Of a DNA stretch of 64,000 nucleotides, positions 7,863 to 62,059 are shown one piece after another. Source of the stretch: Candidatus Nealsonbacteria bacterium (lineage in GTDB: Bacteria > Patescibacteriota > Minisyncoccia > Minisyncoccales > UBA6532); contig JACPLN010000005.1 in the NCBI GenBank assembly GCA_016186485.1, positions 105,256 through 169,255 on the forward strand, in the 5' to 3' direction. The notes under the pieces were generated by a model that worked only from the letters and a program-made list of their open reading frames with translations, was not told the DNA's origin and ran no database searches. The number at the start of each line of letters is the position of its first letter. The stretch's first letter is position 1. The position numbers were made by a program, and so were the translations under genes.

Positions 7863-8633
7863 ATGTTGGGTAAAGTGAATGTAGACCAACTCTGCGAACT
7901 CTTCAGTCAGATAGCTGGAGGGAAAGTTACATCTGAAGCTATACAGGAATTGATTGACAAAGCGCCAAAGCTGGCGTTGCAACAGACTCTTGGGATAGTC
8001 TTGCGCCAGGCTCGTAAGACTGTAAAAGAAATCAACGACCCTCATTTACGAGCCAAAACTCTAGCAGCCATTGCCGGAGTAAGCCATGATGTCCATGACC
8101 TTGACGCAGCCAGAGAAAGCCATGATGTCCATGACCTTGACGCAGCCAGAAAACTAGTACCAGAAATCAGCCATCCTTATTCGCGAGCCGAAGTTCTAGC
8201 AGCCATTGCCGGAGTAAGCCATGATGTCCATGACCTTGACGCAACCAGAGAATCATTAGCAAAAATCACTGATCCTTACCAGCTAGCCAAAACTCTAGCA
8301 GCCATTGCCGGAGTAAGCCATGATGTCCATGACCTTGACGCAGCCAGAAAACTAGTACCAGAAATCAGCCATCCTTATTCGCGAGCCGGAGTTCTAGCAG
8401 CCATTGCCGGAGTAAGCCATGATGTTCATGACCTTGACGCAGCCAGAAAACTAGTACCAGAAATCAGCCATCCTTATTTACGAGCCAAAACTCTAGCAGC
8501 CATTGCCGGAGTAAGCCATGATGTCCATGACCTTGACGCAGCCAGAGAATCATTAGCAAAAATCACTGATCCTTACCAGCTAGCCGGAGTTCTAGCAGCC
8601 ATTGCCGGAGCATTAGCTGAAGCGCTGAAGTAA
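7863..8633 (+). CDS. Tandem-repeat protein with 33-aa helical-looking repeats (LAAIAGVSHDVHDLDAAR...); function unknown
   Basis: AGGAGG sits 8 nt upstream of the ATG. The ORF is made of near-identical 99-bp units. Own promoter and terminator. Confidence 0.75.
   Translation: MLGKVNVDQLCELFSQIAGGKVTSEAIQELIDKAPKLALQQTLGIVLRQARKTVKEINDPHLRAKTLAAIAGVSHDVHDLDAARESHDVHDLDAARKLVPEISHPYSRAEVLAAIAGVSHDVHDLDATRESLAKITDPYQLAKTLAAIAGVSHDVHDLDAARKLVPEISHPYSRAGVLAAIAGVSHDVHDLDAARKLVPEISHPYLRAKTLAAIAGVSHDVHDLDAARESLAKITDPYQLAGVLAAIAGALAEALK
8028..8630 (+). repeat. In-frame 99-bp tandem repeat array (about 5.5 units plus one internal 36-bp duplication)
   Basis: CTAGCAGCCATTGCCGGAGTAAGCCATGATGT recurs at 8061, 8196, 8295, 8394, 8493 and 8592. 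The first interval is 135 bp because of an extra 36-bp copy. Confidence 0.95.
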
Positions 8634-12150: not shown

Positions 12151-13623
12151 ATGATAAACTTTCTGCCGGTTATAGGTTTGGAGGTGCACGCTGAGCTGAA
12201 AACAAAAAGCAAGATGTTTTGTTCTTGCCATAATGATCCCTTGGAAAGGCACCCCAATACAAATATTTGCCCGATTTGCATGGGGCACCCGGGCACTCTG
12301 CCGGTTATTAATAAAGAAGCGGTGAGAAAAGTGATTAAAACGGGGCTGGCTTTAAATTGCCAAATTTCGGAACATTCTAAATTCGACAGAAAAAATTACT
12401 TTTATCCCGACCTCCCTAAAGGATATCAGATATCGCAGTATGACAAACCCCTGTGCCTGGGAGGTTTTTTAATTATTGATGGCAAGGAAATACGCATTAG
12501 GAGAATTCACCTTGAAGAAGACACTGGAAGGCTAATTCACCCTGAAGGGGCGGATTACAGCTTGGTTGATTTTAACAGAGCCGGAGTTCCTTTGATGGAA
12601 CTGGTGACCGAGCCCGATATTGATTCAGCAAAAGAAGCCAGAAGTTTCGCCCAAGAGCTCCAGCTTATTTTTAGATATCTTGGGGTTTCTGACGCTGATA
12701 TGGAAAAGGGAGAAATGAGGGTGGAGGCAAACGTGAGTTTGCTTCAACTTAAACCCAAAACCCAAAACCCAAAACCCAAAACTCTGGGTACTAAAGTAGA
12801 GGTTAAAAATCTGAACTCTTTCCGAGCAGTAGAGAAGGCAATAGAGTATGAGGTTATCAGGCAAAAAGGAATTCTTGGCAAGGGTAAGAAAGTCATTCAA
12901 GAGACTATGGGATGGGATGACGTTAGCGAAGTTACTTTCAGCCAGAGAATAAAAGAAGAAGCCCATGATTACAGGTATTTTCCCGAGCCCGATTTGCCGC
13001 CCTTGCGCATAACAAAAGAGGAGGTTTTGAGAATAAGGGCAGGCGTTCCCGAGCTTCCCCAAAACCGCAGAACAAGGCTTATTAAAGAATACAAATTAGA
13101 GCCAAAAGCGGCCGAGGTTTTCGTAACCAACAAAGACCTCGGTGAGTATTTTGAGAAGACGGTAAGCGAGTTTGATCCGCATCTTTCTAAAGAAAAACTC
13201 CAATCTTTAATAAAGCTGGCAACAAACTATATCGTTACAGACCTTCAGGGTTTGCTAAAGGGGGCTTTGGTGGCGGGCGAAGATTTTTTAATAACGCCGG
13301 AAAATTTCGCCGAGTTTATAAGTTTAATTTACGAAGGCAAAATTACGAGCAAAATTGCCAAGATTGTGCTGGAAGAAATGTTCAAGGCAGGAGCCGATCC
13401 CTCCCATATTATTGAAGAAAAAGGATTGGTTCAGATGACCGACGAGAAAGAAATCGAAGAAATAATAAAAGAGGTAATTTCTCAAAATCAAAAAGCGGTG
13501 GAAGATTACAAAAAAGGCAAAGAAAACGCCCTCCAGTTTTTATTAGGACAGGTAATGGCTAAAACTCAAGGCAAGGTCAATCCCGAGACCGCCCGCAAAC
13601 TTCTCTTGACAAAGCTAAAGTAA
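12151..13623 (+). CDS. gatB: Asp/Glu-tRNA amidotransferase subunit B
   Basis: GLEVHAELKT, CPICMGHPGTLP, GTKVEVKNLNSFR, and the C-terminal YqeY-like tail KGKENALQFLLGQVMAKTQGKVNP. Confidence 0.95.
   Translation: MINFLPVIGLEVHAELKTKSKMFCSCHNDPLERHPNTNICPICMGHPGTLPVINKEAVRKVIKTGLALNCQISEHSKFDRKNYFYPDLPKGYQISQYDKPLCLGGFLIIDGKEIRIRRIHLEEDTGRLIHPEGADYSLVDFNRAGVPLMELVTEPDIDSAKEARSFAQELQLIFRYLGVSDADMEKGEMRVEANVSLLQLKPKTQNPKPKTLGTKVEVKNLNSFRAVEKAIEYEVIRQKGILGKGKKVIQETMGWDDVSEVTFSQRIKEEAHDYRYFPEPDLPPLRITKEEVLRIRAGVPELPQNRRTRLIKEYKLEPKAAEVFVTNKDLGEYFEKTVSEFDPHLSKEKLQSLIKLATNYIVTDLQGLLKGALVAGEDFLITPENFAEFISLIYEGKITSKIAKIVLEEMFKAGADPSHIIEEKGLVQMTDEKEIEEIIKEVISQNQKAVEDYKKGKENALQFLLGQVMAKTQGKVNPETARKLLLTKLK
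12751..12785 (+). repeat. Heptanucleotide tandem array (AAACCCA x4 plus AAACTCT) inside gatB
   Basis: Read directly. It encodes LKPKTQNPKPKTL in a loop between the conserved ANVS and GTKVE blocks. Confidence 0.9.
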
Positions 13624-13656
13624 GTCGAACAGCCCCATAATTTTTTTAAAAAGTAC

Positions 13657-13685
13657 TTGACAGGGGTGTTAGCTATTGTATATAC
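13657..13685 (+). promoter_or_regulatory. Sigma70-like promoter for the toxin-antitoxin pair
   Basis: TTGACA (13657-13662), then 16-17 nt, then TATATA/ATATAC. ATG at 13695. Confidence 0.5.
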
Positions 13686-13694
13686 TTTAGATAT

Positions 13695-13973
13695 ATGGCG
13701 AAGACGATGATAAATATTAGGGCAGACCAGGATATAAAGAGCAAGGCACAGAGAGTTGCTCACGACCTTGGCATGCCTCTTTCTACGATTATTAATGCTT
13801 ATCTCAGACAGCTTATTCGCACCAAGGAGATTCACTTTTCTACTGAAGGAGAATTAAAGCCGGCAGTCAAAAAAAGACTGGATCGTATTCACGAAGAGGT
13901 CAGGGAAGGGAAGAATCTTTCCCCGGTATTTCATAATGCTAAGGCAATGGATTCTTATCTAGATTCTCTATAG
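13695..13973 (+). CDS. Type II antitoxin, RelB/DinJ family (ribbon-helix-helix)
   Basis: The N-terminus INIRADQDIKSKAQRVAHDLGMPLSTIINAYLRQL is DinJ-like. The toxin gene starts 3 nt downstream. Confidence 0.75.
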   Translation: MAKTMINIRADQDIKSKAQRVAHDLGMPLSTIINAYLRQLIRTKEIHFSTEGELKPAVKKRLDRIHEEVREGKNLSPVFHNAKAMDSYLDSL

Positions 13974-13975
13974 AA

Positions 13976-14236
13976 ATGAAGATACAGCTGCATAGAAATT
14001 TTGAGAAGAAATTTGTTAAACTTCCTCTCAAAATAAAGGAGAGGTTCAAAGAACGTAGAGGTCTCTTTCTAGAAGACGCTTTTAATCCGTTGCTTAATAA
14101 TCATCCTTTAAGCGGCGACCGTTTGGGGCAATGGAGTGTTAATATCACAGGCGACTGGCGCGCTATTTATGTGTTTAGAGACGAGAATACTATTGTTTTC
14201 ATTGATATAGACACGCACAGTAATTTATATAAATAA
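13976..14236 (+). CDS. Type II toxin, RelE/YafQ (ParE/RelE superfamily)
   Basis: NNHPLSGDRLGQWSVNITGDWRAIYVF....IDTHSNLY pattern. 86 aa, paired with the antitoxin. Confidence 0.75.
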   Translation: MKIQLHRNFEKKFVKLPLKIKERFKERRGLFLEDAFNPLLNNHPLSGDRLGQWSVNITGDWRAIYVFRDENTIVFIDIDTHSNLYK

Positions 14237-14240
14237 TAAT

Positions 14241-14351
14241 CAAGGCAAAGAAAACGCTTTGCAATTTCTTGTAGGCCAAGCAATGGCAAAATCTAGGGGC
14301 CGCGCCAACCCAGATAAAGTCAGGCAAACTCTATTGACAGAATTAAGATAG
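14241..14351 (+). pseudogene. Displaced relic of a gatB 3' end (36 codons plus stop)
   Basis: Translates to QGKENALQFLVGQAMAKSRGRANPDKVRQTLLTELR*, versus KGKENALQFLLGQVMAKTQGKVNPETARKLLLTKLK* at the live gatB end (22 of 36 identical by my count). No upstream coding continuation. Confidence 0.85.
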
Positions 14352-14362: not shown

Positions 14363-14368
14363 TGGCTT

Positions 14369-14703: not shown

Positions 14704-14732
14704 ATTTTCAGAATGCGTGGTAATATTTTATA

Positions 14733-20585: not shown

Positions 20586-20610
20586 CAGGGTTAAAGATAT
20601 AACCTATAAT
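20582..20610 (+). promoter_or_regulatory. Consensus sigma70 promoter
   Basis: TTGACA (20582-20587), 17 nt, TATAAT (20605-20610). Confidence 0.7.
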
Positions 20611-20631
20611 ATATTCGGTTCGTCAAAATTG

Positions 20632-21078
20632 ATGGGATCAGAAAGAAGAGAAATAGCAGCAAAGGAAACTTCATGGCATCGCAGGTTAAGGAAAAAGCAT
20701 GTTACAAAACCGATTTTTTTTATTCTGCTAATAGTAACGATATTTTGGTTTGCCGGAATCCCTATTTATGCACGCACATCAGGGGCGGGTCTAATCCATC
20801 TTACCAGCAAAGAAACGAGGGTTAGTGGCATAGGAACAATGGAAGATATCAAAAATGCTAGCGTTAGGTTTGATGGTTCTCAATTAATCTTTACTGTTGA
20901 TGGACAAATAAGGAGCATCAAACACATAGGCTCCGGGGCCTTTCAGGAAGAGTTTGCCGTAGGGAATACTGTTGTTGTTATCAACGGAATTACAGAGCGG
21001 GGCGAAGTCTTTTTTGTCAAAATATCTTATTACCAAGGCCAAACCAAATCTTCTTTCCAAACATCTCTACCCGAATAA
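20632..21078 (+). CDS. Hypothetical single-pass membrane protein
   Basis: One TM helix (PIFFILLIVTIFWFAGIPIY). The leader is identical to that of the next gene. Confidence 0.5.
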   Translation: MGSERREIAAKETSWHRRLRKKHVTKPIFFILLIVTIFWFAGIPIYARTSGAGLIHLTSKETRVSGIGTMEDIKNASVRFDGSQLIFTVDGQIRSIKHIGSGAFQEEFAVGNTVVVINGITERGEVFFVKISYYQGQTKSSFQTSLPE

Positions 21079-21110: not shown

Positions 21111-21139
21111 TTGACAGATATAAGAATACATGATATTAT
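21111..21139 (+). promoter_or_regulatory. Sigma70 promoter with extended -10
   Basis: TTGACA (21111-21116), 17 nt, TGA-TATTAT (21134-21139). Confidence 0.65.
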
Positions 21140-21160
21140 ATATTCGGTTCGTCAAAATTG

Positions 21161-21754
21161 ATGGAATCAAGAAAAATACTGACCGTGAAAAAGGGTTCGT
21201 GGCACTACCTGCTAGCGAAAGTACTTGATGACCTCTGGGGTTCGGATATCACTCTCTCGCGCGATGGCTGCAGTTACAGAAGAGGATTAGGCATAGGTGT
21301 TTTCTTTACAGCCATGCCGGTCTTTATGGCGATAGGCATTTTCGCAATTGTCTTTCCCCCAAAAGAGCCATTCTTATCAGCATTTTCCGTCTTAACCCCG
21401 ATATATGGGATAGCAACCCTAATCGAACTAATTGTTCTGTGGGAGAACATGAGCGAGAACAAAAAGCGTCCAGTACAGAGAGTTCTTGGTCCTATTGCAA
21501 AAGTTCTTGATAGGGCATTCGCAAGATGGGATCGCGCGCGTCTTGTCGTAGACAGGACAATAGATGAGCTCTTATCACCGCTAGGGACCCTCATAGACTA
21601 TCTGTGGGAAAGAATTCACGCGCGGCGAATGGCGAGCAGACAGCAAAAGCCCAAAGCCATAAAAGCAGAAAGACAAAAACAGCCAAACCTATTCTTTCTT
21701 TGGATTAAGGCCAAGAAAGAAAGATACTGCCCGCTAATAGAATTCGTGCCATAA
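21161..21754 (+). CDS. Hypothetical membrane protein
   Basis: Two or three TM helices. The N-terminus (K.GSWH) resembles the preceding gene. GC is higher than the surroundings. Confidence 0.5.
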   Translation: MESRKILTVKKGSWHYLLAKVLDDLWGSDITLSRDGCSYRRGLGIGVFFTAMPVFMAIGIFAIVFPPKEPFLSAFSVLTPIYGIATLIELIVLWENMSENKKRPVQRVLGPIAKVLDRAFARWDRARLVVDRTIDELLSPLGTLIDYLWERIHARRMASRQQKPKAIKAERQKQPNLFFLWIKAKKERYCPLIEFVP

Positions 21755-22379: not shown

Positions 22380-22454
22380 GCCGGCTTAGCTCAGCGGCAG
22401 AGCAGCTGTTTCGTAAACAGCAGGCCGTCGGTTCGAATCCGACAGCCGGCTCCA
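22380..22454 (+). tRNA. tRNA-Thr (anticodon CGU), CCA encoded
   Basis: Acceptor GCCGGCT/AGCCGGC, anticodon stem GCTGT/ACAGC, loop TTCGTAA, T-arm GTCGG-TTCGAAT-CCGAC, 3' TCCA. Confidence 0.9.
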
Positions 22455-22478
22455 ATTTTTTTATGTTAGAATATATTA

Positions 22479-23432
22479 GTGAGAACAATTATCCAATCCT
22501 TTTTTGTTTCATTGATCGCCGTATTAGCGGTTTTTCTGTTTTTCACCGAATCTTCTCTGGCAAAAACAGACCTTTCAATAACCGCTACTGATATCACCTT
22601 TTCTAAAGAGGATCCGTTAGACGGAGAAAATGTTCGGGTTTTCGCCCGAGTTTTTAATTTAGGAGATACGGATGTTTACGGTTTTGTCGTTTTTTTAGAC
22701 GGCAAGAGAGAAATGGCGGGTCCCCAGCCAATTTCCGTGAAAGCAAACACTTATGACGACGTATTCATTGATTGGGAAGCGGCTTCGGGCAGTCATAATA
22801 TAGATGCAAAAATTATCGGGACAAATCTTGCAGACGAAAATTCGTCCAATGACGTGGCCAAGAAAGAGAATTATTTCGTTGATTTAGACACGGATAGAGA
22901 TGGAAAGGGGAACATTGCAGACCAAGACGACGATAACGACGGGCTGTCGGATAACGATGAAATTGCAATAGGGACAAACCCCCTGGTTTTAGATACCGAC
23001 GGGGATTTGGTAAAAGACGGGATTGATCTTTTTCCTTTGGATAAAAGCGAATGGCGGGATTCGGATCAAGACGGGTCAGGAGACAATAAAGATTTGGACG
23101 ATGATAATGATAATTTGCCGGACAAAGAAGAAATTTTCGTTTTTGGCACCAACCCCCTCAATAGAGACAGCGATCAAGACAATATTTCAGACGATCAAGA
23201 AGTAATTTTGGGCACCAATCCCGTAAAAAAGGATACAGACGGGGACGGGGTAGCGGATTCCGAAGATGATTTTCCTTTAGATCCCACCAGATTCCAGGCA
23301 TCAATATTAGAAGCCATCGGCGCTTTAATCAAAAAAGAGGGATTGGCGAGAACCCAATTATTTATAGGATTTTCTCTCTTTTCAGCAATCTTTTTGTTTT
23401 TATTTTTCTATCGCAGAAGAAAAATACAATAA
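22479..23432 (+). CDS. Exported protein with CARDB-like N-domain and thrombospondin type-3-like Ca-binding repeats; C-terminal TM anchor (GTG start)
   Basis: Signal-like N-terminus. Repeated D-x-D-x-D-G blocks (DTDGDLVKDGIDLFPLD, DSDQDGSGDNKD, DTDGDGVADSEDDFPLD). Hydrophobic C-terminus followed by RRRK. Confidence 0.55.
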   Translation: MRTIIQSFFVSLIAVLAVFLFFTESSLAKTDLSITATDITFSKEDPLDGENVRVFARVFNLGDTDVYGFVVFLDGKREMAGPQPISVKANTYDDVFIDWEAASGSHNIDAKIIGTNLADENSSNDVAKKENYFVDLDTDRDGKGNIADQDDDNDGLSDNDEIAIGTNPLVLDTDGDLVKDGIDLFPLDKSEWRDSDQDGSGDNKDLDDDNDNLPDKEEIFVFGTNPLNRDSDQDNISDDQEVILGTNPVKKDTDGDGVADSEDDFPLDPTRFQASILEAIGALIKKEGLARTQLFIGFSLFSAIFLFLFFYRRRKIQ

Positions 23433-23434
23433 TC

Positions 23435-23998
23435 TTATTCAATCCTTCTGGAATATTCGCCGGTTTCCGTATTTATCTCAATAATATCTCCCTCGTTAAC
23501 AAATAAGGGAACATTTATTTTTGCGCCGGTTTCAAGAGTAGCCAATTTCGTCCCAGGTTGCGCCCTTTCTCCTTTGACGCCGGGCGGAGCCTCCGTAATT
23601 TTCAAACTTATCTTTATCGGCAAAGAGACGCCAATAATCTTGTTTTCAAACTCAAACGTCTCCACTTCCTGATTTGCTTTTAAAAATTGAGAGCTGTAGC
23701 CAATCTGTTCTTGGGTTAACTCAAACCTGAAAGAGGGATTGTCGGTTTTTGAAAATACAAACTTTCCTTTATTAGAGTAAATAAACTTTGCCTGAAATTT
23801 AGAGATCTCGGCCTCTTCAAAGACGTCTCCCTGATGGAAGTTTTTCTCAAAAACGCTGCCCCCAATGAGATTTTTTATTTTTGCTTGAATTACAACACGC
23901 CTCTGAGCTTTTTTCAGAGGCCTGGCTTCCAAAACTTCGTATGGTTCGCCTTCAATGATAATTCTGATTCCTTTGTGAAGTTCGCTATGCGTAATCAT
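23435..23998 (-). CDS. efp: Translation elongation factor P
   Basis: 187 aa. The N-terminal KOW-like region is ELHKGIRIIIEGEPYEVLEARPLKKAQRRVV, followed by OB domains. Confidence 0.9.
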   Translation of the reverse strand: MITHSELHKGIRIIIEGEPYEVLEARPLKKAQRRVVIQAKIKNLIGGSVFEKNFHQGDVFEEAEISKFQAKFIYSNKGKFVFSKTDNPSFRFELTQEQIGYSSQFLKANQEVETFEFENKIIGVSLPIKISLKITEAPPGVKGERAQPGTKLATLETGAKINVPLFVNEGDIIEINTETGEYSRRIE

Positions 23999-24001
23999 AA
24001 A

Positions 24002-24670
24002 TTATTTTATTGTGCGCCATTCAATTTCCGCTTCTTTGCCGGCAAATTCAAGCCACTCGCTGCTTTCACTGATAACATACCATTTTTTCCTAGTTTCAGA
24101 CCAGACCATTGGATTTCCCCGGAAATAAGGCTTTTTTACTATTTCTTTCGGCTTCAGGTTGTCCAGCTCCAGCCATTTTTTAAAAACGGTTTCAATGGCA
24201 TAGTCAAGCTTCCTTGATTTTGCCCAGCTAGCCACTTTGTCAATGGCTTCTCTGGCCCTTTCCAGGGAACCCGCTAATTCCAGCAGCTGCTTTGCCGGTT
24301 TTGTAAACCTTGAATAAATGATCTTTTGCTTTCTTGTATTTTGTTTTAGTTCGTTTAAAGAAACGCCCTTGGTTTCAAAATAATGGGTAATAACCGTTCT
24401 GATGGCCGTTTTTGATTTTAATTCCTCGTAATATTTGATTTTTCCTTTTTTCAGGTATTCTTCAATTTTTTCTGCTATGCTTTTTCCGACTGCCGGAATC
24501 AGCTCCAGGCCCTTTATACCCTTTTCTTTATAGATTTGCGCAATGTCTTCTTTCAAATTTTCTATGCTTTGAGCCGCTTTTTTGTAGGCTCGGGGCTTGA
24601 AAGCAATACTGTTTATTTCCAGCATCTTTCCGATATCGTATAGTATTTGGGCAATATCTTTATTTTCCAT
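24002..24670 (-). CDS. Helix-hairpin-helix protein resembling the PolX/Pol-beta N-terminal region; no polymerase domain
   Basis: IAQILYDIGKMLEINSIAFKPRAYKKAAQSIENL...IPAVGKSIAEKIEEYLKKG matches the PolX 8-kDa/HhH pattern. The C-terminal ~120 aa are unassigned. Confidence 0.5.
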   Translation of the reverse strand: MENKDIAQILYDIGKMLEINSIAFKPRAYKKAAQSIENLKEDIAQIYKEKGIKGLELIPAVGKSIAEKIEEYLKKGKIKYYEELKSKTAIRTVITHYFETKGVSLNELKQNTRKQKIIYSRFTKPAKQLLELAGSLERAREAIDKVASWAKSRKLDYAIETVFKKWLELDNLKPKEIVKKPYFRGNPMVWSETRKKWYVISESSEWLEFAGKEAEIEWRTIK

Positions 24671-24710
24671 GTTATTTAATTTTAATCTTTTTTATGATAA
24701 CATTCAATCT

Positions 24711-25283
24711 GTGAGACACCGAATTTTCATTGCCATTAATCTTACTGACGATATTAAAGAACGGCTTTTAGAATGCCAAAAAAAATGGCCGGAACTTCCG
24801 GCGCACTGGACCAAAATAGAAAATTTGCACATAACCCTGCTTTTTCTTGGGTACTTGGCGGAAGAAGACTTGCCGTTGGTTTTAGAGAAAACAAAAGAGC
24901 TTGCCTTGAAACAAAAGCCTTTTTCTATTTCCTTAGTAAAAGTTGTTTACGGACCGCCAGGAAAAATGCCGCCCAGGATGATTTGGGCACAAGGAGCAGG
25001 GTCAAAAGAGTTGGGCGTCCTGAAAGAAGGCCTAGAGAAATCGTTGCTGGAAGGCGGCATTAAATTTTCTGCAGAGGATAGAGTTTTCGCCCCCCACATA
25101 ACTTTAGCAAGAATCAAGACTTGGGAGTGGCGGAAGATTGAACCCGAAGAAAGGCCGGAGGTTTCAGAAGAAATCAATTTAAGTTTTGAGGTTAATTCAA
25201 TTGAGGTTATGGAAAGCAAGTTAAAAAGGGGAGGACCAGAATATTTTATTTTAGAGTCAGCCCCCCTTAAAACAGCTTCTTAA
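24711..25283 (+). CDS. thpR: RNA 2',3'-cyclic phosphodiesterase (2'-5' RNA ligase family, ThpR/LigT)
   Basis: Two H-x-T-x motifs (LHITLLFLG and PHITLARI). GTG 24711 gives a typical (M)RHRIFIAI start. ATG 24669 is the in-frame alternative. Confidence 0.75.
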   Translation: MRHRIFIAINLTDDIKERLLECQKKWPELPAHWTKIENLHITLLFLGYLAEEDLPLVLEKTKELALKQKPFSISLVKVVYGPPGKMPPRMIWAQGAGSKELGVLKEGLEKSLLEGGIKFSAEDRVFAPHITLARIKTWEWRKIEPEERPEVSEEINLSFEVNSIEVMESKLKRGGPEYFILESAPLKTAS

Positions 25284-25288
25284 AAGAT

Positions 25289-25354
25289 ATGCGAGCGCAC
25301 TTTATCGGCATCGGAGGAATCGGAGTGTCGGCCCAATGTGGTATATTTTTCTAA
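25289..25354 (+). pseudogene. Displaced relic of a murC 5' end (MRAHFIGIGGIGVSA then out-of-context tail)
   Basis: Nucleotides 25298..25332 match murC 26046..26080 at 29 of 35 positions. All 6 differences are synonymous third-codon positions. Homology ends at about 25334 and a stop follows at 25352-25354. Confidence 0.85.
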
Positions 25355-25380
25355 AGAGCGAGAAGAAAATAAAAACGGGT

Positions 25381-25974
25381 TCATTGAACCTTTTGAACCC
25401 GATAGCGTTTTATGTATAATTGGTGGCACGAGAGACTAAATCCCCCGATGAATATAGCAATGTCGCCAGGGCTTAGATAAACTGGAGATATCTGATCTCC
25501 TAACATTGGCAGGATGGCATCATCGGGGTTTGAGAGAAAGAGATGCCGTTCATAGACGACAGGCTCTGGGTATCCATCCATTATAACTGGCATATAGCCG
25601 TTGTTAACCGCAACAACAATCATATTACTAAGAATGCCAAAAGAGAGAATAATTAGACTAACTGCTAAAATTTTTCGCTTTCTATTTTGAACTGCTATAA
25701 TTAATAAAAAAGACGCGATTGATGTCCTAGTCATTAAAAATAGTAGATCTACTATATTGGACAGCAAGAACGAGAATATCATAATCAGAAATAAAATTCC
25801 GAGGAGTATCAGCACAAAAACCCTGATATGTTTTTGAAGTTTTTCAGCATTTCTTATCCAATATCTTTTCATTAAATCTTGAAGCAGTAATACCAGGCCT
25901 GGCCCAACTGACAGTATAATAAAGCAAGCAACATAATTACTCAACAGATAATCCAACGCAGTCTCAATTATCAA
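25381..25974 (-). CDS. Polytopic membrane protein, DUF5317-like (TTG start as drawn; start uncertain)
   Basis: NNGYMPV ... LGDQI ... SPGDIAIFIGG resembles my recollection of the DUF5317 pattern. The terminator hairpin GGGTTCA/TGAACCC overlaps its stop. Confidence 0.45.
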   Translation of the reverse strand: MIIETALDYLLSNYVACFIILSVGPGLVLLLQDLMKRYWIRNAEKLQKHIRVFVLILLGILFLIMIFSFLLSNIVDLLFLMTRTSIASFLLIIAVQNRKRKILAVSLIILSFGILSNMIVVAVNNGYMPVIMDGYPEPVVYERHLFLSNPDDAILPMLGDQISPVYLSPGDIAIFIGGFSLSCHQLYIKRYRVQKVQ

Positions 25975-25985
25975 GGGGCATCACT

Positions 25986-27365
25986 ATGCAAAGTAATAAC
26001 ATATTTAATAAAATAAGTCAATCCCAAAGAAGAAAACAAGGGGTCCATTTTATCGGCATTGGGGGCATTGGGGTGTCGGCTTTGGCGCAATATTACTTAG
26101 CAATGGGCCATAAAATTAGTGGTTCGGATTTAGCGTCTTCTGAAATTACCGAATTACTTAGAAAGAAGGGGGCTGAAATTTTTATAACAAATCCAAAATC
26201 CAAAATCCAAAATCCAAAATTACAATCAAAAATCAAAAATGCTGACTTGGTTATTTATAGTCCTGCGGTCAGAAAAGACCACCCAGAATTGTTAGCCGCT
26301 AGCCGCTATAAGCTAGAAACCATGTCGTATCCCCAGGCGTTAGGGGAGTTAACGAAAAAATATTTTACCATTGCTGTTTCCGGGACTCACGGCAAAAGCA
26401 CCACCACCGCCATGATTGCTTTGATTTTAGTTAAATCCGGCCTTGACCCCGCTGTAATCGTAGGAACAAAGCTTAAGGAGTTTGGCAACAGCAACTTTAG
26501 AACGGGAAAATCAAAGTATTTAGCGATAGAAGCAGATGAGCACATGGCTTCGTTTTTGAATTACTGGCCAAAAATTATTGTTTTGACAAACATTGATAAG
26601 GACCACCTGGATTACTATAAAAATTTAAAGAATATATTAAAAAGTTTCAAAAAATATGTCAGCCATCTGTCCAAAGACGGCGTTTTAGTAGCCAATAAAG
26701 ACGACATTAATATCTCAAAACTCAAAACTCAAATCTCAAAGCTGCAATTCAAAACTCAAAACTATTCTTTAAAACAAAGGGAGGCGAATATTTTAAGACG
26801 TATTCTGAAAATTCCGGGGGAGCATAATGTTTCCAACGCCTTGGCGGCTTTGACCACGGCAAGGGTTTTGTGTGTTCCAGACAAAATATCTTTTAAAGCG
26901 CTCTCAGAATTCAGGGGTTCCTGGCGCCGTTTTGAAGAGCGCCATATAACATGGAATAAAAAATACTTAACAATTGTTTCCGATTACGCGCATCATCCGA
27001 CAGAAGTTCTGGCCACCCTGAAAGCTGCCAGGAAAAAATATCCCAAAAAACGGATTTGGTGCGTTTTCCAGCCCCACCAATATCAGAGAACGCATTATTT
27101 GTTTAAAGATTTCATAAAAGTTTTTAAAGAAGCTCTTACATATATAGATAGAGTGATCATTACGGATATTTACGATGTAGCCGGCAGGGAAAATAAGGAG
27201 GTTAAGAAAAAAGTGAGCGGTAAAAAATTAGTTGAGGCGGTAAGAAAGCCTAAGGCAATCTATTTGCCTAAAGACAGCGTATTGGGATATGCAAAAGATA
27301 ATTTTCCAAATAGGGGAGTTCTTGTCATAATGGGCGCCGGCGATATTTATATGCTGGGTCGCTAG
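25986..27365 (+). CDS. murC: UDP-N-acetylmuramate--L-alanine ligase
   Basis: HFIGIGGIGVSALAQ, GTHGKSTTTAM, and the Mur ligase C-domain DYAHHPTE. Confidence 0.95.
   Translation: MQSNNIFNKISQSQRRKQGVHFIGIGGIGVSALAQYYLAMGHKISGSDLASSEITELLRKKGAEIFITNPKSKIQNPKLQSKIKNADLVIYSPAVRKDHPELLAASRYKLETMSYPQALGELTKKYFTIAVSGTHGKSTTTAMIALILVKSGLDPAVIVGTKLKEFGNSNFRTGKSKYLAIEADEHMASFLNYWPKIIVLTNIDKDHLDYYKNLKNILKSFKKYVSHLSKDGVLVANKDDINISKLKTQISKLQFKTQNYSLKQREANILRRILKIPGEHNVSNALAALTTARVLCVPDKISFKALSEFRGSWRRFEERHITWNKKYLTIVSDYAHHPTEVLATLKAARKKYPKKRIWCVFQPHQYQRTHYLFKDFIKVFKEALTYIDRVIITDIYDVAGRENKEVKKKVSGKKLVEAVRKPKAIYLPKDSVLGYAKDNFPNRGVLVIMGAGDIYMLGR
26191..26239 (+). repeat. Heptanucleotide tandem array (ATCCAAA x4, ATTACAA, TCAAAAA x2; 49 nt) inside murC
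   Basis: Read directly. It encodes NPKSKIQNPKLQSKIKN between the conserved EIFI and ADLVIYS blocks. Confidence 0.9.
26714..26762 (+). repeat. Second heptanucleotide array (CTCAAAA-type, 7 units, 49 nt) inside murC
   Basis: Read directly. It encodes SKLKTQISKLQFKTQN. Confidence 0.9.
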
Positions 27366-27451: not shown

Positions 27452-30400
27452 ATGCCATACAAAAGCATTAGCCGTTTTTTTAAAAAGGTTGCGGTTTTTT
27501 TTATCGCCATAGTTACAATTTTCGGCGTAACTAATCCTTTTTTGTTTTTGCCGAAAATTGTTTTTGCCCAAGATACCGTTCCTCCAAACATTAATCATTG
27601 GTCTGCTTGGCAGGCAGACGGCGACGCTGTTGTCACTACCACTCTTTATGTCCACGCTTTTGTAGGAGATAACACAGCTACACCCGGTTCCACTCTTGTG
27701 GTGTCAGCTCTTTCTAAGAGCGCGGGTTGGGGCGGTTTCTCAAGCAGCACTTGTTACGCCGAATACAGCGATACCAATCAGTTCAGGTGTCCGATTGGAA
27801 TACAGGGCGGTTCCGATGCCAGAACATTTAACTATTATTTAGAAGCTTTTGACGGTGAAAATAAGTCTTGGAGATCCTGGGCAACAGATACCAATAGTTT
27901 AAATAACGCCAAAAATTATCCTTTTCAAACAACAGTCTACAACGCTCCAAGCTGGACTAACGGTATTTCAGCCGAGGTTACAGACGGCCGGCATTACAAT
28001 TTTAGCCGAGGGATACAGGTCGCCACCTCAACCTTATATATTTCTTCCACCACCGACAGTACGGCCAACTTGGCGGTAAACGACTGGATAATTTTAAAGA
28101 GCACTACAGGGGCGTCTGAGCCAAAAGTAAAGATTCTGGCAATTAACGGTTTTGGCCAAACCGCTACGGAATACGAGGTTCAGATTTCAGGCTATACGCC
28201 TCACAACTTTACCACTTCTGATTATGTTAACGAATTCGTAGACAACGCTTTGGTTTTCATTGACGGCACAACGGCTTACGCTACCACCACAGCTGTCCAA
28301 GCCACCACTACTTTCGGCGCCATAAGTTTATACAATGTTCCTAACGGCAGTTTTGATGTGACTGCTTTTAAACAGGGTTACACAGAGCATAGGATTACTA
28401 ATGTTTATCTTTCCGGCACCTCAACTTCTACTTTAAGGTTTGTTTTGCCTTTTGGAGGTTTTCAGGGCGGAGCCAATCTTGGCGGAACTTCTGTCAGCTG
28501 GTCAGCTCCTTCAAATGGAATGACCGGAGCCCCGGCTAATATCGGTATCGCCCAACAGCCGATTTTAGTCGCTTTTTCCGGAAACGCTTCTTCCACTACC
28601 ATCAGTAAAAATAATATTACTTTGAAAGTTGCCAATCCCGACGGCACTTTTACTGCTTTTTCCGGATACTATAACGTGGCTTATGAAGCCCAAGGGACAA
28701 ATGTCAGCATTGGCGGCACAAATTATGATTTCGGGCCCGATGCCAAAGCCATTGTTTATTCTTCTACCACCTTGGCCACTTCCACGGGTTATGTTGTTCG
28801 TTTGAACAATAATGTTAAGGATGCCAACAATAGCCCCATAAATGGCAACGACCCCCAAGGCGGCCACACAGTCTTTTTCAGCACTTCTGGCGGATTTTTC
28901 TCCGGGGGGGCTGGAATTACTGTCGGCAATTTTGGCAGCGGAGGATCCTTTATGCCGCCTTTTGCGCTCAATGTGATGCCAAACTCTGGTTCGGTGAATG
29001 TTGCCAGAAACACTAAAATCGCTGTCCAGTTTGACCAGCCAATGTCAGCTTCATCTCTTTCTAGCAACATTGAATTAAAGGCCTTGAGTTCTACTTTCCA
29101 AGAAGGGGATTCGGTCACTTTTACAGCAGCGCTTTCTGACACCGATAAATCTCTTTTGATTATTACTCCTTCCAGCAATCTGGCAGCTAGCATCAGGTAT
29201 AAAGTTAAGCTTTTAGGCGGTTTGCAGTCTTCTTCCGGCGTGTCTATGGCTCCGCCGGGGTCTGCCTCAACGAAGATGTTTGAGTTTGAATTTACAACAG
29301 GCTCTTTAACAGATAGCGCAGCTCCAACGATTTTAGCTGCCGGCCTTGACAGATTTTTAGTCGGCTCAACCTACACTGGCGTGCCGGTTTCGGGTATTTT
29401 GAAAGTTTCTTTTTCAGAATCAATTGATCCTACGACGGTCAATGCGTCTAATGTTTACCTAAGAAGAAAGGGCAGTACAAGCAATATTTCTGGCGACGTA
29501 AAATACGATATTATGGAAGGCAAAGTGCTTTTGGCTCCTTCTACCGCCCTTAATGCCACCACCACCTATATTTTGACTTTGACAGGCTATATTAAAGATC
29601 TGACCGGCGCTCAAAACGCTTTGGCAACCACTACTTATGAGTTTACTACCGGAGGGGTTGACGTGACCGGCCCGGCCTTGTCATTCTTTAACGCTGACGA
29701 TTACTCTTTATCTTTGACCTTTGACGAGCCTATGAACTCTGCGGCCATCACGGACACTAATACCTGGCCGTCCGGCTCCACCAAATGGCAGACTTCCGTT
29801 TTGAATCCGTCAAACTACATAGTTTATGTTGATGACGGGGCTCCGACTACAGGTGCTTTTGCAAAGTATTTTAACGTTGACAGTTTGGCAAGTTCAAGCG
29901 CACCCTCGGTTACTTTGACATATGACTCCATGTTTAAGACTATAAAAATTAAAGGAATGCAGTTATTTGCGGGCTCTTCAGGAGTGAGCAGCGATTCAAG
30001 CAGAAGAGGGGCAAGGGTTTGGATAAAAAATGCAACTGATATTTCCGGAAATGTCATTCAGGCAAATGTCGGCCCTGACGCCGAAGCCGATAATTTTGGT
30101 TCAAATGCAGCTGGAGGACCTGTCAAGAATTCTCAGAGCACTTTCGGCCAAATGGGTCCTGGCGGAGGAATGTTTGCTCCGCCTTCTACAGCCGGCAGTT
30201 TCACTATTACCGATTTTGGCGGAAAGAACCCAGCAATGATGGGTATGATGCCTGTTGGTATTTGGCCTATGAATATGATGGCTGGCGCCACTTCAACTTA
30301 CATGATGGATATTCCCGTGTCTTCCGGCAAAGCCATTCCGGCTTCGGGGAAAATCGTTATTGGTCCTTTCCCTGACGAAGCCAATGTTTCTTTGGTTAGG

Positions 30401-33400
30401 GATGCCGATCCCAACAAGACATTTGCTCACAGGGATATTAATGGCCCGGGAACAGGCACGGTTACCATTGCCTCGGTTTCAGTTTCCGGCCAGACAGTTA
30501 CAGTAACTCTGGGTACTACCGGCACTCAAGCCCCAGACTTTATTCATTTGGAATTGGATAATATCAAGAATCCGACCACCCCTACCCAAAGCGGCTATAA
30601 GGTCAGCATCCAGACCCAGAAAGCTGACAGTACGGCCCTGGAATCTTTCACCTCAATGCCCTTCTTTATAACGCCAAAAGGGAAATACGTTATTATAGGC
30701 CATGTTACAGCAACAGATGTTGGGCTTAACGGAGTTCAGGTATTTGGCGGTTCTCCTTCAACCGGGCCTTTGTTTGCCAATTCCAGCAACAGCGCTTTCG
30801 GTTCTTCCACTGACGGCGAATTTAAAATTGAGGGATTAAATGCCGGAGACGTGATGTTAATGACAGAGCAGTCTATCACAATAGGCGCTGATGAATATAT
30901 AGCTTCTTTCCCGGAGCCCATCCATTTGGATGATAGCACCACTAATAATAATTCCGGAGCCGCCAAAGGTGGATTGACCGGCTGCACAAGCACCACCGCT
31001 TGTTATGGTTACAAAAAGATTACTCTGACTAGAGTGGCAGCGGGCACAACCCCGGGTTTAGTGGTTTATATTTACGGCAATTTTGCTACCACTACCGGGG
31101 CTGGTTATGCCACCATTGATATTTTTGCCGGCGGACAAAACGGTTTTAAAGTGAAAGAGGTGTCACTAAACGGCGATTATAGTTCTACTCCTTATTCCAC
31201 TTTGTTGAGTTTGCCTAATACCGGCAGCTATTTTGTCGGCATAGGGCCTGCTATGCCAAAAACAATGGGCAAGTCAGCTCCTCCAATGCCGACTACCTGG
31301 ATGCCGCCAAAACCGGTAAACGTCAATGTTTCTGGGTCTGGCGGAACTTGGACTTGGGTGGAATCTGACTCAGCCTCAACAGGGACATCAACCGCTGACG
31401 GCTTGGTAAAGTTTACTATTGTTTCAGCCAACAAAACCATTTCCGGCCACGTTTACGACACTTCCGGCAACGCTGTTACCAATGCCCAAGTTTTTGCTTA
31501 TTCTCCGAATGGTTCCTTTGGAAACAGCACGTATGTCGGGCAAAACGGATCATTTAGCCTTCAGGTTAGCACCGGATTTTACAAAATCGGCGCATTCTTG
31601 CCAGGCGCTCCTCCGACAAACGAAATCGGGGTGGAAGTTAAATCCAGTGCCGTTCTTGTTGATGGAATTACCACCACAGACGTTATCTTAAAGATTAGTA
31701 AGGACATACAGTCAGGCTATACTATTTCGGGCACTGTCTATTCGGACACAAGCTCCCAGTATCCGGCCTCAGACGCTTCTGTGTATGCTTACAGAACGGA
31801 TGGCCCGGGCAACACCGAAACAATGACGGATTCCAAAGGAACTTATACCCTTTATGTTGGTATCGGTACCTGGAAAGTGGGGGTTTTCCTTCCTTCTCAC
31901 GGAAAACTTACCGAACAGACGGTCAGTGTTTCTCCGTCAAAATCAGGCCTTAAGTTTACTCCGGATACAACGACCAATTATGTCACCATTAGAGAGAGGG
32001 TTTGGGAAGATCAGAATGACGACGGCGTTGTTGATTCTGGAGAAGGAATTGCCAAGGCGACAGTAACCTTTGTCGCCACCAGCACGGCCTATGTCAACAC
32101 GGCTGTTACCGATTCCAGCGGCGTTTATGAAATTAAGGTTCCCGCTACCACTACTTACGATATTTATGTTTGGTCGCCGGATATTGGCAATTTAGCGCCT
32201 CAAAAGAATACCATAGTTACCAGCACCAACATTATTTACACTTCTTTTTCTGACTATGCTGACATGAGAACGGAAAAAGCCACCACTGTTGAGTTTGGAA
32301 TATATGATTCCAACAATGTGGCTACAACCGTTGATAAATTACTTATTCAATTGGACAGGATAGGCGTGTTCGGGGTGAGCAACGACGTTTATAAAGAGAA
32401 AGTTGCCACTACTACTATTAGGGTTGCCACTAGTACCAGACCTTATATTCTGGATGCTAGAATAGAAGGCATTCCCAAGGGTTTGCTGACCTTTACTACT
32501 TTTGATGCCAATACCGCTTTAACAACCACGACAGTTGGCACCAAGAGATTTGCCACAACTACCGTTAATGATTATGAGAAGATAAAGATACTTCTGCCGC
32601 CGGTTAGCTATGTTTCTGGCCAGGTTAGAGACGATAGCGGCAATGGTATTTCCAATGCTGTCTTGCACATTGAACAGCCGGGAACCGATGTTGAGTTTGA
32701 TGTTGATACTGACAGTTCAGGCAACTATTCTTTCAGAGTGGCCTCAAGTACTACTCCTTACCTAATACAGGCAAACGTTTCAGGATATATAGATTCAGCT
32801 GATTCAGTTTATGCTTCAAGTACGTCTTTAACCTATAACCCGAGCGTCAAGAAAGCAAACTTTACAATTTCAGGACAGGTTACTATTAATGGGTCGGCTC
32901 CTTCCGGCACAAGCGTGTATGTTTGGGCGGAGAAGCTGGGCGGCGGATACGGGGCCACTGCCAAGGGAGATCCTTCTACAGGCGCCTACACTTTGTCTAT
33001 TACCGAAGGAAGTTGGGAGGTTGCTGCTTCCGCCGAAGGTTATTCGGCTTTAACTAAACCGGTTATTGTTGATGTTTCAGGAAACAATGTTTCTGGCATA
33101 GGCTTTGATATCGCTTCTGAAGCAACGACCCAAAAACCGCAGAACTTGAGCATGGCAGGAAATGTCGGAGGCACTGTTACCAACAAGGATTCCGGTTTTG
33201 AAATGTCAGTTCCGACGGGTACCATTTCTGCCTCAGACTCAAGCTCATACAATGTAAAGGAGAAAGAAGTTTCCAACATCCCGACCTATACTCCAACTGG
33301 TAATTTGGTCGGTAACACAGCAGAAGAGGTTTCTGCTTATAAGATGTCGGGGTCAGGAGGAAATGTCAGCACTGTTTCCGGGTTGAATGGTTCCGCGTTT

Positions 33401-36817: not shown

Positions 36818-37489
36818 TTGAACCTTAACAAGTACGTATATCCTAAGGGCTACAAAGTAAAGAACATTACGGAGCAGACCAACATCTTGCGTCAGTTATT
36901 CCCCGGAATAGGCTATGCTGACGAGAGAATAGTCAAAGGACCTTTGCCGGAGGGAGCCGAAGGATGGTTCGCCATCCCGAGGTGGGATAGTATCGCGCAT
37001 ACCTACAACGAGGCGGTGGATAAGGTGCTGAAAATGCTCAAGCAACAGTGCAAAGGCAGGTTCTATAACTACCGCGAGCACCATATAACAGATTGGTTGC
37101 AACAAACCAATAAGGCAATGAAGATGTTCTATAAGATATGGCAAGAGCAGGATGGATACGACATTCTCGTAGTTCCGGCGCAGTTCGGTCTCCGTCATCG
37201 GGGCCTTTCCATTAGGCAGGCTCGGAATGCCATGAATGTCATGGAGTTTGGTTTCGGCGCTTTCGCCGTCGGTATCATGCTATTGATCCATCCCGAGCGG
37301 GAAGTCCAGTGGGAACAGCTCCACGTTCTATGCGCTGGTGACGACTTCAGTATCATCTATGTCGAGTCCTTGCGCGAGCCGTTTTTCGACTTCTACAACG
37401 GCGAGGTAAAGTTCGACAACTGCTTGGAACATAGCTACGACGATCGCTACGGTTCCGCGTCGGGATTTGTCTCGTCCTCCTCCGTATAA
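36818..37489 (+). CDS. Unassigned protein family, paralog A (223 aa, TTG start)
   Basis: TAGGTGA SD-like sequence then TTG. Shares blocks GAEGWFAIPRW, YNEAV, PAQFGLRHRG, HPEREVQWEQLH and C-terminal GSASGFVSSSSV with 38085.. and 55518.. Confidence 0.8.
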   Translation: MNLNKYVYPKGYKVKNITEQTNILRQLFPGIGYADERIVKGPLPEGAEGWFAIPRWDSIAHTYNEAVDKVLKMLKQQCKGRFYNYREHHITDWLQQTNKAMKMFYKIWQEQDGYDILVVPAQFGLRHRGLSIRQARNAMNVMEFGFGAFAVGIMLLIHPEREVQWEQLHVLCAGDDFSIIYVESLREPFFDFYNGEVKFDNCLEHSYDDRYGSASGFVSSSSV

Positions 37490-49291: not shown

Positions 49292-50284
49292 ATGAAATTA
49301 GCTGACTATAGGAAAATAAGCTTATCTTTGGTTAAAGATTTGCCAGACAAGACAAGAACCGTTTTAGAAAGGCGGTTTGGTTTTGGTTATGCGGAGCCCG
49401 AAACATTAGAGTCTATCGGCAAAATCTTCGGTTTAACCAGAGAAAGAGTAAGGCAGATAGAGGCAGCCGGCCTTAAGAAAACCGCAGAGCTGGCTAAGGA
49501 AAAATACGGCAATATTTTTCAAAGTTTTAGAAACTACCTTAATAAGAACAGCGACGTAAAAAAGGAAGAACTTTTAGTATCGGATTTTTCTTCCCCCGAA
49601 TCTAAAAACTATTTTTTGTTTCTTCTGGCTCTAGGAGAAGAATTCCAAAGGTTTAACGAGAACAATCGTTTTTATGCTTTTTGGGGGGCGGGCTCAAGTT
49701 CGGCAAATCTGGCAAAAAAGGCTGTGGACCAGGCAATAGAAAAACTTGAGAAATCTAAAAAACCTTTTTCCTTGGCTGACTTCGGGGCAATTCCCGAATC
49801 TTATCTTGAGATAACAAAACGCATTGTAAATTTTGAGGGCAAATACGGTCTGCGAGAGTGGCCGGAAGTTAACCCGCGTTTTGTAAAGGATAAAACATAT
49901 TTAGTTTTAAGGAAGGCCGGCAAACCCCTTCATTTTATGGAAGTTACCAGCCTAATTGGAACCTTAGATGCGCCGGGCAGCATTCATAAGAAGGTTAATC
50001 CTCAAACTGTCCATAACGAACTAATTAAGGATCAAAGGTTTGTTTTAGTCGGCAGAGGCACTTATGCTCTAAAAGAGTGGGGCTATTTTGAGGGAACGGT
50101 AAAAGACGTGGTTTTTGCCGTTTTGACCGAAGCGCAGCAGCCCCTGCCTAAATCAGAAATTGTAAAAAGAGCGCTAGCTCAAAGGCAGGTAAAAGCCAAT
50201 ACAATTGCATTAAGCCTCCAAGACGGCAAAGTTTTTGTAAGAGATTCGGGAGGAAATTATTCTCTAAAAGGAAAGTTAGTTTAA
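49292..50284 (+). CDS. DNA-binding protein with N-terminal sigma70 region-4-like HTH and C-terminal HARE-HTH-like domain
   Basis: ETLESIGKIFGLTRERVRQIEAAGLKK is region-4-like. LHFMEV....VHNELIKDQRFVLVGRGTYALKEWGY is HARE-HTH-like. Confidence 0.5.
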   Translation: MKLADYRKISLSLVKDLPDKTRTVLERRFGFGYAEPETLESIGKIFGLTRERVRQIEAAGLKKTAELAKEKYGNIFQSFRNYLNKNSDVKKEELLVSDFSSPESKNYFLFLLALGEEFQRFNENNRFYAFWGAGSSSANLAKKAVDQAIEKLEKSKKPFSLADFGAIPESYLEITKRIVNFEGKYGLREWPEVNPRFVKDKTYLVLRKAGKPLHFMEVTSLIGTLDAPGSIHKKVNPQTVHNELIKDQRFVLVGRGTYALKEWGYFEGTVKDVVFAVLTEAQQPLPKSEIVKRALAQRQVKANTIALSLQDGKVFVRDSGGNYSLKGKLV

Positions 50285-61672: not shown

Positions 61673-61680
61673 TTTCTTAT

Positions 61681-62059
61681 CTCAGCGGGCTCATAGGCCG
61701 AATTTTGTTTAAATGGTCATCTATCTGGATCCGACTTTGCAGTCGGATTCTAGCGAGCTACTTTTATTCTTCGATAAATCCGGAGATTATCGAAGACTTT
61801 GCTCTTGCATCCGGGTAAGGATTTAGCCGTTTCACCTAGGCATTTCTGCCGAGTTCGCCCTCCTTTGCATAAAAGCTTCGGAGGGCGATTTTATCCTTTC
61901 GGACAAAATCGTCTCTGTTCGCACCTCTCCCGCCAGCAACTGCGTAGCTGTAGGCGGGGACGGGCGTTACCCGCTACCTTTGTCCTGACTTAACGTCTGG
62001 ACTGGATGTTCGGATCTTCCTCCCCGACTATAGTCGGAGCGACCATCCGGCCCACCAAG
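61681..62059 (-). ncRNA. rnpB: RNase P RNA, bacterial type A
   Basis: The minus strand reads the following elements. P1: CUUGGUGGGC / GCCCGCUGAG, 10 bp. P2: AUGGUC / GACCAU. P3 hairpin: CCGACUAUAGUCGG. P4 strands: GGAGGAAGAUCCGAAC and ACAAAAUUCGGCCUAU, where CCGAA:UUCGG covaries with E. coli CCGGG:CCCGG. Also present: GGUAACGCC, ACAGAGA, GGUGAAA and AGAUAGAUGAC. Confidence 0.9.

Follow-up and report, generated by a model that had tools for sequence, protein, structure and literature searches.

Replacement of a gene terminus by incoming DNA, with the displaced end left behind as a relic, is well known. In Escherichia coli, the element e14 (and phage 21) integrates in icd, where it brings a substitute gene end and displaces the original as the fragment icdC, the two ends differing mostly at synonymous positions (PMC13626634), and SXT/R391 elements integrate within prfC, at its 5′ end (PMC2791158). 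Here we describe a locus of related design in a 64,000-nucleotide (nt) stretch of DNA, referred to below as the window, which is identical to the corresponding part of the NCBI metagenome-assembled genome (MAG) of a Candidatus Nealsonbacteria bacterium. In this window the 5′ end of the essential cell-wall gene murC is present twice, once as a short stub next to thpR and once at the head of the full-length gene, and a gene for a DUF5317-like membrane protein lies between the two copies.

As with e14 in icd, the inserted DNA brings a substitute end for a housekeeping gene, the gene remains intact and apparently functional, and the original end is displaced as a pseudogene fragment. e14, however, measures 15 kb, carries its own integrase, replaces the 3′ end of its target and excises on SOS induction, whereas the segment in murC is 0.75 kb long and recombinase-free, and it replaces the 5′ end and would also supply a promoter; a second case in the window, at gatB, is the closer 3′ analogue. 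SXT resembles the murC locus in its integration in the 5′ end of a conserved gene, and Hochhut and Waldor reportedly described in 1999 how it supplies a new promoter and 5′ coding sequence of prfC, but it is about 100 kb long and depends on a tyrosine recombinase acting on a fixed pair of attP and attB sites, and neither was found here. A single crossover between the chromosome and a circle with a terminal gene fragment, as in Campbell-type insertion-duplication, also leaves the insert between a complete and a truncated copy of the gene, and in homology-facilitated illegitimate recombination foreign DNA likewise becomes lodged beside an anchor of homologous sequence (PMC3240628). Both are routes of recombination known in general or from the laboratory rather than a described type of natural cassette, and the homology here is very short (8–16 nt identical in diverged sequence). 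Lastly, in type VI secretion system effector or Rhs/CdiA arrays an incoming module recombines in a conserved part, brings a new end and orphans the old end downstream (PMC5361080), but those systems swap variable toxic C-termini under diversifying selection, whereas here an equivalent end has been replaced and a separate cargo gene is present. The design described here differs from known replacements of gene ends in its scale of about 0.7 kb, its single transcription unit, its lack of a recombinase, its putative supply of both a promoter and a fresh 5′ end to an essential gene, and its recurrence in Patescibacteria.

Two starts of murC around a membrane-protein gene

The gene preceding the stub scored well above the equivalog cut-off of TIGR02258 (112.4 against 65.7 bits), also matched PF02834 and contains both H-x-T/S motifs (HITLLF and HITLAR) in its translation, and its alignment with the LigT genes found ahead of murC in relatives runs from end to end. 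Its real start is the GTG at 24711 and its TAA stop lies at 25281..25283 (Table 1). The stub that follows belongs to an open reading frame (ORF) of 21 codons, MRAHFIGIGGIGVSAQCGIFF and a stop, which falls out of register with murC after 25333 (QCGIFF, then the stop at 25352..25354). This short frame, its match to the live murC at 29 of 35 positions, the restriction of the differences to synonymous third-codon positions and the end of homology at about 25334 had all been described in the earlier note, and each of these observations held. When the repeat was extended by one base (25298..25333 and 26046..26081), 29 of 36 bases were identical, both copies translated to the twelve residues HFIGIGGIGVSA and all seven differences were synonymous and at third-codon positions. 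The similarity ends at 25333/25334, and none was found to the left of 25298. Within the repeat the longest identical run is internal and measures 11 nt (TTTATCGGCAT), and a run of 8 nt (GTGTCGGC) lies at the inner edge. The conserved HFIGIGGxG motif occupies residues 21–29 of the live MurC and residues 4–12 of the stub.

Table 1 Coordinates of features at the murC locus and the parallel gatB locus, numbered from the first letter of the window
Feature	Position	Strand	Remarks
thpR (RNA 2′,3′-cyclic phosphodiesterase, LigT family)	24711..25283	+	GTG start, 190 amino acids; native neighbour 5′ of murC
Putative dead original murC start, 15 codons MRAHFIGIGGIGVSA	25289..25333	+	ATG at 25289, 5 nt past the thpR stop; His is residue 4
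Left copy of 35-nt direct repeat	25298..25332	+	83% identical to 26046..26080
Right copy of 35-nt direct repeat	26046..26080	+	within live murC
Insert, 748 nt (point-insertion reading)	25334..26081	.	terminator, DUF5317-like gene, divergent promoters, putatively foreign murC start
Terminator-like hairpin and T-run	25377..25400	-	overlaps membrane-gene stop; stem 25390..25378, then CGTTTTTATT
Cargo gene, DUF5317-like membrane protein, 163 amino acids	25381..25872	-	ATG at 25872; open frame reaches TTG 25974
Promoter-like site facing cargo gene	25944..25916	-	consensus match only
Promoter-like site CTGACA-18-CATAAT, 10/12	25908..25937	+	49 nt upstream of live murC ATG; consensus match only
New murC start, ATG and 20-codon lead MQSNNIFNKISQSQRRKQGV	25986..26045	+	GC 0.28; Shine-Dalgarno-like AAGGGG 7 nt upstream
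Live murC, 459 amino acids	25986..27365	+	TIGR01082, three Mur ligase Pfam domains
gatB parallel region	13514..14351	+	live 3′ end, relB, ParE/YafQ-like toxin, relic
gatB live 3′ end	13514..13623	+	
relB	13695..13973	+	PF04221
ParE/YafQ-like toxin	13976..14236	+	PF05016 above cut-off; PF15738 just below
Relic, last 36 gatB codons and stop	14241..14351	+	tblastn 61% protein identity, E = 2.5e-9

In a repeat search of the region the stub/murC pair ranked first among the direct repeats, its copies lying 748 nt apart. Comparison of all 57 long ORFs with the six-frame translation of the window gave this pair as the only 12/12 peptide match, and the only perfect match of at least 10 residues, outside true paralogues. 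The probability that seven random differences among 36 sites would all land on third positions is 9.5e-5. Between the two starts pS, the proportion of synonymous differences, was 0.72 and pN, its nonsynonymous counterpart, was 0; synonymous sites are thus saturated with no replacement change. In a neutral-decay simulation with at least 0.2 mutations per site, the peptide was unchanged in at most 0.13% of the runs that had six or more third-position differences; at 0.1 per site few runs reached six such differences, and 3.7% of those that did kept the peptide. Saturation of synonymous sites without any amino-acid change rules out a local duplication that subsequently decayed, and indicates that the two murC starts diverged under purifying selection, while both were still selected, and in different lineages. 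This fits an incoming 5′ end, one of the two starts being of foreign origin as judged from these substitutions, and the stub would have been dead only briefly.

The junctions themselves are real. The Logan assembly L020 (SRR12113424) corresponds to window positions 26215..22392 with zero mismatches and spans both junctions of the murC locus, and the Logan assembly L021 (SRR12113422) spans the left junction at 100% identity. The assembly artefact that the earlier note had named as a possible refutation is therefore not the explanation, independent assemblies having reproduced the junctions; no identical run shared by the two copies, moreover, is longer than 11 bases, which is not enough for a k-mer join.

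The full-length gene encodes MurC, UDP-N-acetylmuramate–L-alanine ligase. Its product scored 400.6 bits against TIGR01082 (cut-off 335.1), matched PF01225, PF08245 and PF02875 above their thresholds and is 100% identical to protein P0001 of the NCBI Nealsonbacteria MAG. Position 2 of the TIGR01082 model aligns to residue 20 of this protein, and the longer N-terminus remarked on in the earlier note proved to be a 20-residue lead. No other in-frame start codon is found ahead of HFIGIGG. Since solved MurC enzymes carry roughly 10–35 residues before the aligned motif position, such a lead should be tolerated.

Related loci indicate which arrangement is ancestral. In every relative's locus that was long enough to judge (L002, L003/L004, L005, L008–L011, L012–L014 and L015), LigT/thpR lies directly upstream of murC on the same strand with nothing in between, the two genes overlapping by 19 nt or being spaced by 47–58 nt; L006 and L007, too short for an adjacency call, have the same overlapping upstream ORF. 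The thpR–murC adjacency without the membrane gene that the earlier note had expected in relatives was thus seen throughout, and a DUF5317-like gene was present in none of the relatives' scanned loci. The HFIGIGG motif occurs once in each of eight relatives' loci (L002, L003, L005, L008 and L012–L015) and twice only in the window, so that the truncated second start which would have spoken against an insertion was not encountered in them. Of the 120 best MurC homologues, 69 have the His of HFIGIGG as residue 4 and 34 as residue 9; the stub, with this His at residue 4, thus has the commonest N-terminus of the family. The 20-residue lead was unique to the live MurC of the window among these 120, in keeping with the suggestion that it accompanies the insertion. 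A MurC scan of genome contigs gave one distant match, from Lentisphaeria. Distances of LigT and of MurC to the relatives agree, the window being the outgroup and L002 its nearest relative in both (64% and 67%, respectively). With the same pattern of relatedness in both proteins, nothing points to a foreign origin of the murC body, which on this comparison is not obviously foreign.

A separate kind of insertion was observed in one of these loci, L015 (2573–2657), which belongs to another lineage. Its murC start contains a 77-nt in-frame insert resembling a miniature inverted-repeat transposable element (MITE), with inverted ends of 7 nt (CCCGGTA/TACCGGG) and a duplicated TACA target, and gene callers fuse the old ATG and this insert into a 35-residue lead. 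The proteins P0091/P0111, considered as a second double murC start, were rejected in favour of such an in-frame MITE-like insert.

From left to right the insert consists of about 45 nt, a hairpin and T-run over the cargo stop, the cargo gene, a 113-nt region, AAGGGG, the ATG, the lead and the twelve shared codons. The 113-nt region to the right of the cargo gene bears promoter-like sites in both directions. The GC content is 0.37 in the part of the insert outside murC (25334..25985) and 0.42 in the window as a whole. As in e14- and SXT-type insertions, a partial duplicate of the gene terminus is found on the two sides of the insert and the gene is intact by means of the insert-borne copy. No terminal inverted repeats were found at 25334 or 26045/26081, and with a repeat of 35 nt that has diverged the locus does not resemble the insertion of an insertion sequence, MITE or transposon. 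The insert has no recombinase gene, its one ORF being the DUF5317-like gene, and a Pfam scan of 44 ORFs of the window turned up no recombinase.

The earlier note had assigned the minus-strand gene to the DUF5317-like membrane proteins, with a terminator hairpin of its own and an extent of 25381..25974. The family stood: PF17248 (DUF5317) matched with 34.8 bits (gathering threshold 25; E = 2e-8) over profile positions 4–147 of 151, although the protein has no NCBIfam match. The hairpin and T-run were likewise found, but the most likely start is not TTG 25974 but ATG 25872, which is favoured by the extent of the profile match, the minus-strand promoter-like site and the NCBI annotation (P0121, 163 amino acids). 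The protein is a near-orphan. Homologue searches returned itself and a few matches at 31–39% identity, the best other match among 1.84 billion representatives having E = 1e-6 and 34% identity, and a word search gave no relative. With matches at this level only, the donor is not traceable. Scans of viral contigs gave nothing for the cargo or for the toxin of the gatB cassette, exact-sequence look-ups of MurC and of the 197-residue membrane ORF gave no record, and Rfam gave no RNA family inside or adjoining the murC or gatB cassette.

A parallel case at gatB and toxin–antitoxin cassettes

The earlier note regarded the murC locus as a mirror of a case at gatB. The parallel in design was borne out, although the gatB relic turned out to be a 3′ end and not a 5′ end. 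It is in frame, with its stop at the homologous place, and a 16-nt run (13514–13529 and 14242–14257) is identical exactly at its inner edge. The two gatB ends have a ratio of nonsynonymous to synonymous substitution (dN/dS) of about 0.17 and are offset by 728 nt, compared with 748 nt at murC. At both sites in the window the host sequence continues unbroken from one side of the insert to the other, and the insert ends (murC) or begins (gatB) with the donor version of the terminus. Codon usage, through rare codons, weakly favours the relic as the native gatB end and the live end as the import. Four Logan assemblies reproduce the locus. The cores of the murC and gatB repeats are unrelated in sequence.

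By adjacency and family matches, relB and the toxin gene constitute a complete type II toxin–antitoxin pair. Homologues of the toxin at 60–79% identity were found across Patescibacteria, and a metagenome scan gave 79 loci. Under an identity criterion, duplicated pieces of neighbouring genes flank 7 of 56 real cassette positions, an approximate count, against 1 of 126 mock positions (Fisher p = 0.0012); a control based on score alone did not discriminate, internal domain repeats scoring alike at mock positions. The same design was seen elsewhere in 3′ relics (L065, L061 and the pgk C-terminus in L082/L084/L085) and in 5′ duplications (L077 and L063), and nucleotide alignments placed the start of the relic 5–10 nt past the toxin stop in those loci. 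All these cassettes start at a conserved promoter, TTGACA-N17-TATACT, and sigma-70-type promoters therefore appear to be used in this group.

More generally, relatives of the cassette (L022–L100) are often bracketed by direct repeats of 26–120 nt derived from the end or start of the neighbouring gene, which range from perfect to highly diverged. Examples are L065 (585–719 and 1293–1410), L061 (1436–1546 and 2132–2242), L077 (3638–3691 and 4277–4327) and L096 (3642–3667 and 4307–4332).

The gatB relic is followed by about 360 nt of noncoding, relatively G+C-rich sequence (14352–14712) with a strong terminator at its end. Its fold z-score was -2.7 (2 of 100 shuffles folded as well), and it may be an unclassified RNA gene. 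It had no Rfam match and is neither transfer-messenger RNA nor RNase P RNA; the latter assignment was rejected, as RNase P RNA lies at 61678..62058.

Possible routes of entry

We consider it probable that a foreign segment of 748 nt was inserted at codon 15/16 of murC together with a substitute gene start, presumably by a single crossover. The earlier note had proposed that incoming DNA supplied a replacement 5′ end and displaced the original, and the synteny, the N-termini and the synonymous-only differences support this. In the ancestral order, thpR would have been followed by a murC starting MRAHFIGIGG, with nothing in between. The segment would have carried the terminator, the opposite-strand DUF5317-like gene, divergent promoters, a ribosome-binding site, an ATG and the first 32 murC codons of a distant lineage, namely the 20-codon lead and HFIGIGGIGVSA. 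Ending in register with the host murC, it would have kept the essential gene whole and placed it under the cassette promoter and start codon, and the first 15 murC codons of the host would have been stranded beside thpR as the stub. A circular form of the cassette probably recombined once with the chromosome at a site where donor and host murC were identical, the candidates being TTTATCGGCAT (11 nt) and GTGTCGGC (8 nt). In such a Campbell-type insertion-duplication one crossover would put both junctions at the same host position, the truncated copy would keep its place beside native host sequence (thpR in one case, what lies downstream of gatB in the other) and the complete copy would adjoin the import. 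We infer on these grounds that the thpR side is native and that the cassette came in.

Several points weigh against this account. The nearest MurC among 5.8 billion sequences is only 67% identical, and no relative above that value is at hand in which the empty site or the arrangement in the donor could be seen. The promoter is recognised by its consensus match alone, and no circular form or excision product was seen. Codon usage cannot say which murC start is native (log-likelihood -16.4 vs -14.8), and the identical run at the murC edge, only 8 nt long, is statistically indistinguishable from ordinary conservation. The toxin–antitoxin survey, lastly, concerns other cargo, and its loci are not all independent, the same organism being present in several samples.

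Other routes to this anatomy were weighed. Linear DNA, acquired for instance by natural transformation, could have recombined by homology-facilitated illegitimate recombination, with the crossover further downstream in murC, where homology between donor and host would serve as the anchor, and the other end joined illegitimately at codon 15/16, in which case part of the murC body would be foreign. Such recombination is on record for competent bacteria and for conjugation in E. coli (PMC3240628), natural competence has been demonstrated in Patescibacteria (PMC10633639), and the final anatomy would be the same. We regard this route as unlikely, however. The saturated synonymous sites suggest that donor and host murC were probably about 65–80% identical in DNA, which would make a poor RecA anchor, and the agreement between the MurC and LigT distances also counts against it. 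At gatB and several toxin–antitoxin loci, moreover, the relic lies within 5–10 nt of the last stop of the cassette with both junctions at one host position, and two independent joints would not be expected to give this repeatedly. Integration by a tyrosine or serine recombinase at an attachment site mimicking the murC start, the insert being either a non-autonomous cassette moved in trans or what is left of a larger element, would account for an anatomy that matches attL/attR attachment sites with an element-borne replacement terminus and synonymous differences, as at icd/icdC (PMC13626634) and for SXT at the 5′ end of prfC (PMC2791158). It would also suit the short identical runs at the inner edge of both relics (8 nt at murC and 16 nt at gatB). 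The absence of a recombinase from the insert and from the scanned window ORFs nevertheless makes it quite unlikely, as do the unrelated cores at murC and gatB and the presence of one toxin–antitoxin family beside the ends of different genes (gatB, pgk and others), from which no single fixed attachment site emerges.

Alternatively, the locus could have arisen in two steps, by acquisition of a complete foreign murC and the membrane gene beside the native gene and a later deletion of the native murC from codon 16 onwards. Starts diverged under selection would be explained and no special recombination would be needed, but the xenologue would have had to land right beside the native murC and the deletion to end just outside the cargo terminator, a coincidence that would have to recur at gatB and at the other loci where relics abut the cassette edge. 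With the MurC body also tracking the neighbouring LigT in its distance to relatives, we judge this sequence of events improbable. That no biological event took place, and that the repeat is due to chance, to a local duplication of the target-site type with later divergence or to a chimeric assembly, is hardly credible. The DNA match is indeed short (35 nt) and the motif is the most conserved part of MurC, but the peptide match is the only one of its kind in the window, the third-position bias of the differences and the neutral-decay simulation oppose chance and decay, and the short shared runs and the two assemblies, which came from other runs, oppose a chimera.

If the segment was indeed inserted with its own gene start, the locus is a dated and clean scar, left by horizontal transfer at the point where the coding sequence of an essential cell-wall gene starts, in bacteria whose routes of gene exchange are poorly known. 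The insertion would have been survivable because promoter, start codon and an equivalent gene end all came with the incoming DNA. A second scar of like design 11 kb away, together with the toxin–antitoxin examples from other Patescibacteria, suggests recurrent integrase-free entry of very small cargo units into streamlined genomes. We propose with some hesitation, as a possibility rather than an expectation, that Patescibacteria carry sub-kilobase cassettes devoid of recombinases, each a single transcription unit (toxin–antitoxin, membrane protein or other). These might spread from one distant lineage to another by using a terminal piece of a conserved housekeeping gene as a portable homology patch, integrating in register by one crossover within a few identical bases that keeps the gene intact and leaves a relic; murC, gatB and the relic-flanked toxin–antitoxin copies (pgk and others) would be members. 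For annotation, the exact borders and the direction of an insertion can be read from short ORFs that duplicate the end of a conserved gene nearby, and where a conserved enzyme has an unusual N-terminal lead, that lead may have come in from outside instead of evolving in place.

Neighbouring genes and other repeats in the window

Directly 3′ of murC, positions 27452–34552 encode a predicted surface protein of 2366 residues, rich in T/S/G repeats and with an N-terminal membrane anchor. Elsewhere in the window, 51602–53272 encodes an ATPase resembling VirD4/TrwB-type coupling proteins, with a zinc finger, adjacent to a sigma-70 region 4/HARE-HTH protein (49292..50284). This ATPase belongs to DNA-transfer machinery and could bear on the entry of foreign DNA.

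In-frame heptanucleotide tandem repeats (AAACCCA, AAATCCA, CTCAAAA, CTACATT and AATTTCC; 4–8 copies) were found at 12751–12782, 26189–26240, 26714–26763, 18986–19016 and 35819–35848. They sit inside conserved genes (gatB, murC twice, lepA and murB) and encode stretches of low complexity, PKSKIQNPKLQSKIKN among them. The gatB (12752) and murC (26215) arrays coincide with the ends of two independent Logan contigs.

Three paralogous ORFs (36818–37489, 38085–38804 and 55455–56198) encode proteins of 223–247 amino acids that are 43–72% identical to one another and have no Pfam match. Each is followed by a conserved segment of about 140 nt with a palindrome, and two of these segments, 37454–37593 and 38769–38908, are 98.6% identical. 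A 99-nt tandem array of about five copies (8027–8610; 84–95% identity) lies inside ORF 7863..8633, which is itself bracketed by a perfect 45-nt repeat (7711–7755 and 8667–8711). Lastly, a 32-nt repeat (97% identical; 20609–20640 and 21138–21169) is located just upstream of the adjacent ORFs 20629..21078 and 21158..21754, which have no family match, and could represent a regulatory site common to both ORFs or a local duplication.

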